Below are positions 57,141-60,095 of a stretch of 64,000 nt of DNA, one piece after another. The notes under the pieces were generated by a model. That model was not told where the DNA came from. It worked only from the letters and a program-made list of their open reading frames with translations, and did no database searches. Numbering within the stretch: position 1 is the first letter of the stretch; each line of letters opens with the position of its first letter. The translations under genes were made by a program, and so were the position numbers. The stretch lies in the NCBI GenBank assembly GCA_000002435.2, contig CM018790.1; one strand, written 5' to 3'. Source of the DNA: Giardia intestinalis (lineage: Eukaryota).

Positions 57141-60095
57141 ATGCTAGTCGATCTTGACATGCTACTTGTGGCGGAGTTTTGCCAAATACAAGGCCCCACT
57201 GTAATAAGCTCTCTTCCAGACTACCCGTGCATATCCGGCTATACCTACAGAGAGACAGAGCGAATCATCTCTACACTCTTGCTTAAAGTTATGAGCATGA
57301 ACTATCCAGCCGACCTGGACCAGAACCCGCTACCTCACATGTACAATGCTGACTCCTACGTAAGTGTCTCCTACCCTCTACTCTCTCTGGTGGACCAGAC
57401 AGATCCAGATTTCTTTCCGGATCACCATCAGCTGGAGCAGAGAATCATACACATTCTTCACCTCTCTACATTTTTACCAGATATCAGTGCCAGAGGATAT
57501 GTTAGAAAGCTCAGCCTCCTGTATCTGTCTTTCGACCCTAAGAAACTGGACCACATGCGCTTTAATATTTTATTTGCTCTGAACGAAGCCCTCGCACTGT
57601 TAAAGTATGCTGCTACAATCAGCACCAAAATAGATCTGGCGCGGTATATAGTTGGCCTGAACAAATCTATCTCTGATCTGGACCGTGTCGGCAAGATTGT
57701 CGCTAATGTACAATTAAATGAAAAAACGCTGAAATCCCGTCTTTCAGATGAGGGGTTTCCCGATGGTTTTATTTCATCTGTGCTATTTTACTCATCACAC
57801 AGCGCTCTTACAGATATGATATCATCCCTGAAGGGATTTCGCAAGGAGGCCATCACAAGATTCACCCTACTTCGGTCAAAAACGCTTCCTTCTGTAATCA
57901 TTGCAGCGTTAAATCCCCAACACGCTAAGTACTTTTCCCGCCCCTATTTACAACTATTTGACCAAAGAGAAGTAGCAAAGCTCATGCTAGAAACTCTTGT
58001 CCTCAGCGAGGATACAACTAGTGAAGATGTGGACGCCGTCTATTCACCCTATCTCACACGGACCATCGCCAGTATTCTTGAGCACTCTCCACACTTGGTC
58101 TTGTGTAATTCTCACGATCTCTATGTTACTGCCAAGCAGCCACTTAGACGACTTGAAGAGTACTTGAGCCCCCCTTTTCTAGCCTTATTCAAGGAGATCA
58201 TAGAGAAAATCTATGGGTTCTATCGGTTATCTCTCATTGACATTTTAACCACAGAACAGTGCCAGAACTCGCCAGTAGTTCTTAAGTTTGGAGAGGTGTT
58301 TCTGTTCCCTGCCGGTGAGCTGGAGGATTCCCTTGTTCTTCCAAGGAGCTCGTTGCACAACAATGCCAACATTCTGATGGATAGTTACATTGACAGCCTC
58401 CCGTCTCAATTTAACTCCCTCACTAAGCCGACGCGCTTCCTCTATACCCCAAATGTGTGTGCAGATACCTATAGTACTCTGTTGATGACCAAATGGCTCT
58501 TCCTGCATCAGTATAATCCAGACCTTGTACTGAGCTCCATAGCATGGAAGGATCTAGCTAGAGAAGCAGACCTAACTCGAAGTCTACTGGATGATCTCCG
58601 CAGGCCATGTATCCACACATTTATGCACTATAATCACGAGTCAAAGATAGGGCACCTTCTTTTCTTTCTTTATGTGCTGCTGTCGCCCCGTATCTTCAAT
58701 AACACGTGCACGTCTCTTTTGCAAGGCAAACTTCTTGTGGTACTTTGCAACAAGCTCATTGTTGCACAGATATTAGTATCTGCACTATCGGTTTTTTCTG
58801 CAGAAATACTTGTTCAGCCTGTCGCCACGAGAGGAAGCAACCCTTATATCCACAAGGAGCGTGAGTCTATAGATTGCTTAAAAATTTCAGTTGAATTGTT
58901 CCGAGACTTATCCAGTTTCAAAGAGTATTGCTTATCAATTTCTAAGCGCAGAGGAGCCAAGCGGGCTGCAATAGTGGTGTTCTGCAATGATGCGTACATA
59001 CCGTTTTCCGCGGGTGCCTCATTCTCTTCACGAAGTCGCATGACTGTGAATACTTTGACTGGAGCAGACTCACTCATAGATGCTCCCTCTCATCTTCCTT
59101 CTCACCCTTCATCATCGCTGCCCACTCAAGTGAGTAGACTGACCAATGACCCTACCCATGACTGTCGGGGTCATGACCTCTATCTTCAGGACCTAGCAAC
59201 CAGCTCCACAAATCCAGCCATGAAAGCTGCTCATCCCAGACACCCCCCGATTGAAGCAGGAACTAAAACGGTTGGTCCGTCGCAGAGCATTTTTGCAGAT
59301 GCCTCTGCCTTTGTAGAGACAGAGAATTCAGAGTACTCTTCAAAGGATTCAGTAGACTTCTTTGATGATTTGTTTGAGAAGCTATTTATTGATAAAGAAG
59401 ACGAGCTTTGCGCTGCGCTTTTAGCAACAGGCGACGTAAAGGGACTCATGATTCTGGACAGCCAAATTAGATATTGGCCGAATGAAAAGATCAATTGTTC
59501 CGTTGTAAGGTCTATCACTGTGTACTTCCCAGGAAAAGGAGATCGTAATGCTGCAAGCAAGGTAGGTGTCAGTACTGATTTTATTTCGCGCAGATTGCAG
59601 AACGGTCTGTCCAAATTTTTCAGTCCTTTTCTTTCAGGACGGCACCAGAGCCAGAAGAGCTTGAACAAACAACCAGGCACAACCAGTCACGACACCGGAA
59701 TCTCAGAGAGCAGACACGACGATGAGACTGAAGCAGTCAGTCCCCGATTGCAAATGACAGATGCTGGCGCATCGCAAAGAGCACAAATGCGGATAAAAAG
59801 CGGGGATGAGCGGATTCTACCACGATTCAAGGCTGCATTCATGCAAGTAGATGGAGCAAGTCCTGAAGATATTGAACGTGTGTGGAATTCCGATCACTAT
59901 TCTAGGAATGATGGCGAACTATTCATAGAGCCTCCCTCAATGATATCGTCAATTGGCGACTTTCAGGCTATGCCAACTCTTTCTGTTAATAGCGGCCGTA
60001 ATAGAGCGATTGACGACCAGACAATATACAGAAATAATCTAGATTTACAAAGAATTATGATAGACACAGGTATTGACCCTATTGACTACACATAA
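57141..60095 (+). CDS. Folliculin/SMCR8-like longin-DENN family protein (984 aa), tentative
   Basis: N-terminus LLVAEFCQIQGPTVISSLP matches the folliculin longin-domain start (ALCHFCELHGPRTLFCTE). A later strand ISARGYVRKLSLLYLSF matches SLARGFQRWYSIITIMM. The protein has a long C-terminal region compatible with a divergent DENN module plus low-complexity inserts. Confidence 0.4.
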   Translation: MLVDLDMLLVAEFCQIQGPTVISSLPDYPCISGYTYRETERIISTLLLKVMSMNYPADLDQNPLPHMYNADSYVSVSYPLLSLVDQTDPDFFPDHHQLEQRIIHILHLSTFLPDISARGYVRKLSLLYLSFDPKKLDHMRFNILFALNEALALLKYAATISTKIDLARYIVGLNKSISDLDRVGKIVANVQLNEKTLKSRLSDEGFPDGFISSVLFYSSHSALTDMISSLKGFRKEAITRFTLLRSKTLPSVIIAALNPQHAKYFSRPYLQLFDQREVAKLMLETLVLSEDTTSEDVDAVYSPYLTRTIASILEHSPHLVLCNSHDLYVTAKQPLRRLEEYLSPPFLALFKEIIEKIYGFYRLSLIDILTTEQCQNSPVVLKFGEVFLFPAGELEDSLVLPRSSLHNNANILMDSYIDSLPSQFNSLTKPTRFLYTPNVCADTYSTLLMTKWLFLHQYNPDLVLSSIAWKDLAREADLTRSLLDDLRRPCIHTFMHYNHESKIGHLLFFLYVLLSPRIFNNTCTSLLQGKLLVVLCNKLIVAQILVSALSVFSAEILVQPVATRGSNPYIHKERESIDCLKISVELFRDLSSFKEYCLSISKRRGAKRAAIVVFCNDAYIPFSAGASFSSRSRMTVNTLTGADSLIDAPSHLPSHPSSSLPTQVSRLTNDPTHDCRGHDLYLQDLATSSTNPAMKAAHPRHPPIEAGTKTVGPSQSIFADASAFVETENSEYSSKDSVDFFDDLFEKLFIDKEDELCAALLATGDVKGLMILDSQIRYWPNEKINCSVVRSITVYFPGKGDRNAASKVGVSTDFISRRLQNGLSKFFSPFLSGRHQSQKSLNKQPGTTSHDTGISESRHDDETEAVSPRLQMTDAGASQRAQMRIKSGDERILPRFKAAFMQVDGASPEDIERVWNSDHYSRNDGELFIEPPSMISSIGDFQAMPTLSVNSGRNRAIDDQTIYRNNLDLQRIMIDTGIDPIDYT

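Follow-up and report, generated by a model that had tools for sequence, protein, structure and literature searches.

The gene and its longin domain

We analysed a 64,000-nucleotide (nt) stretch of the Giardia intestinalis genome (NCBI GenBank assembly GCA_000002435.2, contig CM018790.1), referred to here as the window, and focused on one of its genes, GL50803_0015399, which we found to encode what is almost certainly a longin protein of the FLCN (folliculin)/SMCR8 family and, in the reading that we favour, an SMCR8-like one. The gene is a single open reading frame (ORF) at 57141..60095 on the (+) strand, which runs without interruption from an ATG at 57141-57143 through 984 codons to a TAA at 60093-60095. 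Its 984 amino acid (aa) product is identical in sequence to the G. intestinalis WB protein XP_037901753.1 (UniProt D3KGK9), which is publicly annotated as "hypothetical protein", a label also carried by all named orthologue records (G. intestinalis assemblages A, B and E, and G. muris). Full-length orthologues that share the start methionine are present in G. intestinalis assemblages A, B and E, in G. muris and in P0021, a diplomonad-like assembly (run SRR31929897). Identity to the ORF is 86% for the assemblage E orthologue GLP15_4475 (EFO61395.1), ~73-75% for the assemblage B orthologue GL50581_1541, 68-71% for the orthologues in two further Giardia-like assemblies, 33% for G. muris GMRT_15494 and 23% for P0021.

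The most conserved block of the protein is its N-terminus, aa ~5-170 (57153..57650, (+) strand), which we identified as an FLCN/SMCR8-type longin domain by BLASTP, hhalign and an SMCR8-only hidden Markov model (HMM). BLASTP of the ORF product with residues 1-280 of human SMCR8 aligned aa 6-206 with SMCR8 56-224 at an expectation value (E) of 8e-9, and the alignment runs through the SMCR8 longin domain end to end at 23-27% identity. A diplomonad-only profile of 7 sequences (A2) was aligned by hhalign with human SMCR8 over 156 columns (E=1.5e-7, probability 93.9%), and with an SMCR8-only family profile (A5, 13 vertebrate and invertebrate SMCR8 longin fragments) at E=6.4e-10 and a probability of 96.6%. 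As a control, HMMs were searched against the window's six-frame ORFs of 60 aa or more, 301 in all; the HMM built from A5, which holds no diplomonad sequence, matched this ORF alone at E=4.2e-8, with the next best ORF at 0.78. The human SMCR8, FLCN and C9orf72 queries were verified against PDB chains 6LT0_B, 6ULG_L and 6LT0_C, respectively. The Pfam Folliculin family PF11704 scored below its gathering threshold of 23.3 bits in two of the orthologues, with 19.6 bits (E=8.8e-4) in P0021 and 12.4 bits in G. muris; human SMCR8 scores 35-37 bits. The longin domain is followed by a helical extension at aa 171-255 (57651..57905, (+) strand), the first part of which can be aligned: the BLASTP match reaches aa 206 (SMCR8 224), and hhalign of the N-terminal block placed aa 3-246 on SMCR8 53-252.

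An earlier note on this DNA had pointed to two folliculin-type longin motifs in the ORF, and both are there. FCQIQGPTVI at aa 13-22 fits the pattern FC(E/Q)(L/I)(H/Q)GP(R/T)(T/V)(L/I), and ARGYVRKLSL at aa 117-126 fits ARG(F/Y).R..S(I/L), the second beginning 104 residues after the first rather than the roughly 110 given before. Degenerate patterns drawn up post hoc carry no assignable chance level, and we therefore relied on the whole-domain statistics given above, which back both motifs. The motifs picked by eye are exactly the catalytic pocket of the family, that is, the GP loop and the arginine finger. The GP motif (G68-P69 in SMCR8, and present also in FLCN, NPRL2 and C9orf72) is a hallmark that sets longin domains of GTPase-activating proteins (GAPs) apart from other longin domains, and the arginine finger (R147 in SMCR8, and present also in FLCN) is a second, which adjoins the former within the catalytic pocket (Novák Vanclová, Jackson and Dacks, 2025; PMC12290439). 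In the Giardia protein the GP loop is EFCQIQGP (aa 12-19; 57174..57197, (+) strand), which aligns with SMCR8 from E62 through FSEQVGP to P69, so that G18-P19 falls on SMCR8 G68-P69; E12, F13, G18 and P19 are invariant across all diplomonad homologues. The predicted catalytic arginine finger is Arg118 (codon 57492..57494, (+) strand), within DISARGYVR (nt 57480-57506). It aligns with SMCR8 Arg147 by BLASTP, hhalign and HMMER and with FLCN Arg164 by hhalign, and it is invariant in every sequence of the alignments that we made (A2, A4 and A6). SMCR8 Arg147 points at the BeF3 of ARF1 in the experimental structure (PMC8213707), and FLCN Arg164 plays the same role in the RagC structure (PMC9473554). 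Around the finger, H107, D114, V121, R122, Y128, K135 and K155 are invariant or nearly so across diplomonads plus SMCR8.

The longin block is 48% identical to that of G. muris and 40% to that of P0021, compared with 10-34% for the blocks downstream of aa 400. Judged by these conservation values, purifying selection is concentrated in the longin domain plus three downstream blocks, and no part of the protein appears to be under stronger purifying selection than the longin domain.

The region downstream of the longin domain

The earlier note had placed the protein in the folliculin/SMCR8 longin-DENN family. The longin part of that proposal is borne out by the pairwise and profile E-values (8e-9 and 6.4e-10); the DENN part comes down to one short anchor that is collinear with the longin match. 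This anchor, SLLQGKLLVVLCNKLIVAQILVSALSVF, lies in a putative central DENN core at aa ~494-625 (58620..59015, (+) strand). BLASTP aligned aa 525-568, beginning with SLLQGKLLVVLCNKLIVAQILVSALSVF, with SMCR8 726-771, beginning with SLLSGRTLVVLGEDEAIVRKLVTALAIFV, at E=2e-4, and hhalign put the anchor at the start of the SMCR8 DENN domain with E=0.021, 0.004 or 0.003 depending on the slice used. An HMM of mammalian SMCR8 700-937 ranked the ORF first of the 301 window ORFs at E=0.008 (next 0.3), again at the anchor segment. When the SMCR8 DENN profile was diversified with PF27109 (SMCR8_C) genes found beside four longin fragments (L002, L004, L005 and L006), the richer profile hit the same anchor at E=0.006-0.013, which is no better, with the ORF still first of the 301. 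Throughout, the anchor (aa ~494-556) is a constant segment that corresponds to the strand and helix with which the SMCR8 DENN core begins. Together, these alignments suggest that the Giardia protein likely contains a DENN core. In full-length MAFFT alignments the SMCR8 DENN core fell on aa 749-800 instead; we rejected this placement in favour of aa 525-556 because BLASTP, hhalign and HMMER agree on the latter, as does MAFFT on the C-terminal halves alone.

Between the longin domain and the anchor is a block at aa 314-392 (58080..58316, (+) strand), containing AKQPLRRLEEYL, FYRLSLIDILT and FLFP, which is conserved among diplomonads and may be the counterpart of SMCR8 301-381. The hhalign match is not significant (E=0.8), and hhalign and MAFFT independently gave the same collinear placement. 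Downstream of the putative DENN core, aa 626-734 (59016..59342, (+) strand) form a variable linker or insert with 21% hydrophobic residues and 38-73% identity among G. intestinalis assemblages, compared with 74-97% for the folded blocks. There follow a conserved block at aa 735-835 (59343..59645, (+) strand; 81-93% identity among the assemblages), possibly later DENN strands, and a moderately conserved C-terminal block at aa 880-984 (59778..60092, (+) strand), possibly the equivalent of d-DENN, with an invariant GID motif near the C-terminus. Two resemblances noticed by eye, of GLMILDSQIRYWP to SILDLDNKTLRCP and of SPEDIERVW to NEDVRVVQY, are statistically unsupported and we do not claim them.

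The Pfam copy that we searched is without PF27109, and full-length human SMCR8 matches only PF11704 in it, so the missing C-terminal Pfam match in the Giardia protein is uninformative. In three non-vertebrate assemblies (L002 8001-12136, L004 1323-5114 and L005 8001-14178), SMCR8 is called in pieces, of which one holds the PF11704 longin domain and one or two others hold PF27109 (SMCR8_C). The many short 'SMCR8 longin' proteins in the database are gene-call fragments produced by introns or frameshifts, not longin-only proteins.

Neighbouring genes and the wider window

The SMCR8-like gene lies between a PHO80-like cyclin gene, which is transcribed divergently from it, and a DnaJ gene that converges with it. 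The cyclin (56015-56959, (−) strand; 314 aa; Pfam Cyclin PF08613, E=3.9e-14) is separated from it by 181 base pairs (bp) of A/T-rich intergenic sequence (56960-57140). On the other side, a type I DnaJ/Hsp40 with a J domain, a CXXCXGXG zinc-finger domain and a C-terminal domain is encoded at 60110-61318 on the (−) strand, its stop codon 15 bp from that of the SMCR8-like gene. As listed, the DnaJ ORF has a GTG start and a 35-nt overlap with the next gene; its true start is probably the internal methionine of 'MILFLLLALIL…', which resembles a signal peptide, and the protein is then probably a DnaJ of the endoplasmic reticulum type. Elsewhere in the window, 42619-45753 (−) encodes a 1044-aa protein in which ankyrin repeats take up nearly the whole length (Ank_2, E=6e-86), as is typical of Giardia's expanded 'protein 21.1' family. 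Five long ORFs (439-1906 aa) gave no Pfam match at E<=1e-3, namely 61284-63953 (−), 45633-51353 (−), 37745-42475 (−), 52827-54530 (+) and 54532-55851 (+); the 889-aa one has a long central region, coiled-coil-looking and rich in E, K, L and Q.

Giardia genes are not known to be organised into functional clusters, and the gene neighbourhood is uninformative for this reason. No synteny was found between the Giardia locus and the P0021 locus. On the P0021 contig (L001; Logan SRR31929897), a gene for a small ArfGap-domain protein (4687-5244, (+) strand) lies directly upstream, by ~750 bp, of the SMCR8-like orthologue (6001-10017), an adjacency that is probably a coincidence given the lack of synteny with the Giardia locus. 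We found no mention of the gene's locus tags in the literature, and nothing usable there on Rag GTPases in Giardia.

Family placement, proposed function and known relatives

To place the protein within its family, we compared it like for like with SMCR8 and FLCN, and by these alignments it is the closer to SMCR8. Profile alignment with SMCR8 spans 156-199 columns, compared with ~31 for FLCN. The best in-register BLASTP match to FLCN covered the N-terminal motif only, at E=1.3, and hhalign of A2 with FLCN aligned 31 columns around the arginine (FLCN 152-182) at E=0.06. A phmmer search with FLCN against the 301 window ORFs did not retrieve the ORF. In the C-terminal half of FLCN the sole BLASTP match was out of register, and neither the whole protein nor its C-terminal pieces matched the FLCN-type C-terminal DENN domain (Pfam Folliculin_C) at E<=10. 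We call the protein SMCR8-like because its similarity to SMCR8 reaches beyond the shared pocket. With FLCN aligning over 31 columns only, the folliculin likeness that the earlier note had emphasised is replaced by likeness to SMCR8, and its suggestion of a RagC/D GAP upstream of TORC1, the target of rapamycin (TOR) complex 1, is unsupported, as that role belongs to FLCN-FNIP and SMCR8-C9orf72 is a GAP for ARF and, more weakly, RAB8A (PMC8213707).

Taking the longin, DENN and pocket evidence jointly, we consider with reasonable confidence that the gene encodes an SMCR8-like protein with a DENN remnant that is a putative arginine-finger GAP. A number of results weigh against this. Pfam hmmscan of the whole protein, of its N-terminus and of two C-terminal pieces gave no match even at E<=10, and neither the protein nor the Giardia profile found a real match among PDB sequences. 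A search of 1.84 billion representative proteins with the Giardia profile (hmmsearch) retrieved three diplomonad clusters at E<=1e-3 and no SMCR8 or FLCN; since this database-wide search retrieved diplomonads only, the link to SMCR8 rests on pairwise and profile-profile statistics. The GP loop is of mixed character, with F-C and an aliphatic fourth position as in FLCN and E12-F13 as in SMCR8, so that a subfamily call from the loop alone is ambiguous. The DENN assignment is carried by a single ~40-60-residue anchor at marginal E-values; the block at aa 735-835 gave no significant match to SMCR8, FLCN, C9orf72 or Pfam, and the block at aa 880-984 none to the SMCR8 DENN/d-DENN regions or Pfam. 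AlphaFold2 models were unusable for the fold, both for the full-length protein with 6 Giardia sequences (mean predicted local distance difference test (pLDDT) score 28.9) and for aa 480-984 modelled with the C-terminal rows of diplomonads and of mammalian SMCR8 (pLDDT 35.8; predicted template modelling score 0.29). Foldseek of the latter low-confidence model against the PDB returned nothing at E<=1e-3, its top matches being F1-ATPase noise. The earlier note had been prepared to give up its proposal if no longin or DENN fold were predicted and profile alignment did not support the motifs; these pLDDT values are too low for a call on either fold, and hhalign does support the motifs, so that the proposal is not refuted on these terms, which called for both failures at once.

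Four other explanations have to be set against this placement. The lack of any Pfam or PDB match and of any non-diplomonad match in the 1.84-billion-protein search might suggest chance motif matches in a protein unrelated to longin GAPs, an explanation that is refuted by E-values of 8e-9 (pairwise), 6e-10 (profile-profile) and 4e-8 in the control search, where the next ORF scored 0.78. That the gene is the Giardia orthologue of folliculin (FLCN/Lst7), acting upstream of TOR as the GAP of a RagC/D-type GTPase, would agree with the arginine-finger segment being in register with FLCN 152-182, and with FCQIQGP sharing F, C, the aliphatic residue, G and P with FCELHGP, the loop (FLCN residues 10-16) that sets RagC specificity (PMC9473554). 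We nevertheless hold this to be quite improbable. The FLCN match is confined to ~31 residues, and FLCN missed the ORF in the window control, whereas SMCR8 aligned over 156-199 columns; the E-F in front of the loop is as in SMCR8, whose E62 and F63 clash with RagC when modelled (PMC9473554); size and insert architecture are nearer to SMCR8 (937 aa) than to FLCN (579 aa); the CxxC of the human FLCN longin insert is missing; and Zhang et al. detected no FNIP in diplomonads (PMC3521125).

A protein that predates the split of FLCN and SMCR8, or has diverged too far to be assigned to either, could also owe its SMCR8 likeness to rate differences instead of orthology. The mixed GP loop fits such an undifferentiated FLCN/SMCR8-type protein, as do the presence of only one such family among the diplomonad HMM-search matches, the description 'related to both' by Zhang et al. 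(PMC3521125), and the 2025 survey, which could not resolve the relationships within the family (PMC12290439). However, the alignment takes in several SMCR8-specific motifs as well as the post-longin helix, and the DENN anchor is nearest to SMCR8, while the C-terminal half of FLCN has no in-register match, which leaves this explanation rather unlikely. We likewise think it improbable that homology is limited to the longin domain, with the C-terminal 600-700 residues being diplomonad-specific and devoid of a DENN module. That would account for aa 735-835 and 880-984 matching nothing, for a DENN anchor that is short with E of just 2e-4 to 0.02, and for the failure to obtain a fold with AlphaFold2 or Foldseek, and fungal Lst7 offers a precedent, having retained the longin domain alone and lost DENN (PMC3521125). 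Yet the anchor was found in the same, collinear place by BLASTP, hhalign and HMMER with three SMCR8 profiles, with the ORF at the top of the 301, and the low-confidence model has strand-helix…helix-strand at the anchor, as expected for a DENN core.

If the protein is an SMCR8-like GAP, its mechanism may be drawn by analogy with the C9orf72-SMCR8-ARF1 and FLCN-FNIP2-RagC complexes. The longin domain would pair with that of a second subunit, and the pair would cradle a small GTPase. Arg118 would then enter the nucleotide pocket of the GTPase, complete the active site and speed GTP hydrolysis, with the DENN part forming the body of the complex. As to the substrate, we have a slight preference for an Arf- or Rab-type GTPase of the reduced endomembrane system of Giardia over a Rag, because E12-F13 is in the SMCR8 state that clashes with RagC and because of the overall likeness to SMCR8. 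More speculatively, and we consider this unlikely, the protein might be a single, catalytically intact SMCR8-type longin GAP that acts as a homodimer or with a longin partner diverged beyond recognition, without recognisable C9orf72, WDR41 or FNIP, and that is the only FLCN/SMCR8-type GAP in Giardia, a parasite whose endomembrane and nutrient-signalling systems are drastically reduced. Such a protein would represent a minimal or ancestral module, possibly one that serves a Rag-like GTPase or, at the peripheral endocytic compartments, an Arf or Rab, and would extend the family to Metamonada.

At the family level the finding is already known and fills an annotation gap; it is not a discovery. 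An FLCN/SMCR8-like protein of Giardia was reported in 2012 by Zhang et al. (PMC3521125), who gave no subfamily call, motif-level analysis or GAP interpretation, predicted these proteins to be Rab guanine nucleotide exchange factors, and described the C9orf72 clade as reaching 'parabasalids and diplomonads'. Their gi number (gi:308158833), which seems to belong to the Giardia P15 records, could not be mapped, but their protein is very probably the orthologue of the ORF by way of the P15 member GLP15_4475, because only one such family occurs among the diplomonad matches and the 86% identical GLP15_4475 is the sole P15 member found. Trichomonas and Naegleria are the only two that the 2025 survey cites from that study (PMC12290439). 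What is added here is the SMCR8-like assignment, the orthologues in G. muris and another diplomonad, and the domain map. The survey also found that, of the possible cases in parasites, no more than 2% and 9% had subunits of the C9orf72-SMCR8-WDR41 (CSW) and folliculin complexes, respectively, and its pan-eukaryotic CSW tree is without metamonads (PMC12290439); retention in Giardia is mildly noteworthy for these reasons. The "hypothetical protein" can thus be annotated as an FLCN/SMCR8-family longin GAP subunit, SMCR8-like, with predicted catalytic Arg118, and the catalytic pocket of this GAP family appears to be under strong purifying selection in diplomonads. An R118A point mutation, together with the protein as bait, would offer a way to find the small GTPase and the partner in Giardia's minimal endolysosomal system. 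A Rag-TORC1 link to amino-acid sensing is not established by the finding.

Among known systems, NPRL2/NPRL3 (GATOR1) and C9orf72 belong to the same broad family of paired, GAP-forming longin domains, and NPRL2 and C9orf72 have the GP motif. C9orf72 was rejected as the closest relative: it carries a WD motif and lacks the arginine finger, whereas the Giardia protein has EF, not WD, before GP and has the arginine, and hhalign aligned the diplomonad profile with C9orf72 only in an irrelevant segment at E=0.46. Folliculin (FLCN; yeast Lst7; 6NZD, 6ULG and 8DHB) is of the same superfamily and shares the same catalytic logic, with its GP loop (FCELHGP, compared with FCQIQGP in Giardia) and its arginine finger (LARGFQR, compared with SARGYVR) at equivalent positions. 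FLCN differs in having no significant similarity past ~31 residues, in its shorter length, in the human longin insert with CxxC (…CEGC…), which the Giardia protein is without, and in having H, not E, before the loop. The comparison with SMCR8, the catalytic subunit of the CSW complex (6LT0, 6V4U and 7MGE), also includes differences, as the Giardia protein is too diverged for PF11704 or database-wide HMMER, its aa 256-494 between the longin domain and the putative DENN core are conserved and hydrophobic whereas the mammalian SMCR8 insert is disordered, an extra variable insert lies in or after that core (aa 626-734), and its downstream DENN and d-DENN parts are not recognisable. The likenesses run through the protein from its N-terminus. 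The loop reads EFCQIQGP in Giardia and EFSEQVGP in SMCR8, both EF-x-x-x-x-GP, compared with HFCELHGP in FLCN. The (K/R)xMSxxY motif is KVMSMNY in Giardia and RIMSVDY in SMCR8; the arginine finger stands in the shared pattern H107…D114..ARG.VR…Y128 (H-x6-D-x2-ARG-x-VR); the K…LK helix has Giardia K135 and K155 at the positions of SMCR8 K164 and K184; and a further helix continues the match to about aa 206-246. The two proteins are of similar length (984 and 937 aa), hundreds of residues separate the longin domain from the known or putative DENN core, and in Giardia the putative core has a first strand-helix, SLLQGKLLVVLCNKLIVAQILVSALSVF, that resembles SLLSGRTLVVLGEDEAIVRKLVTALAIFV of SMCR8.

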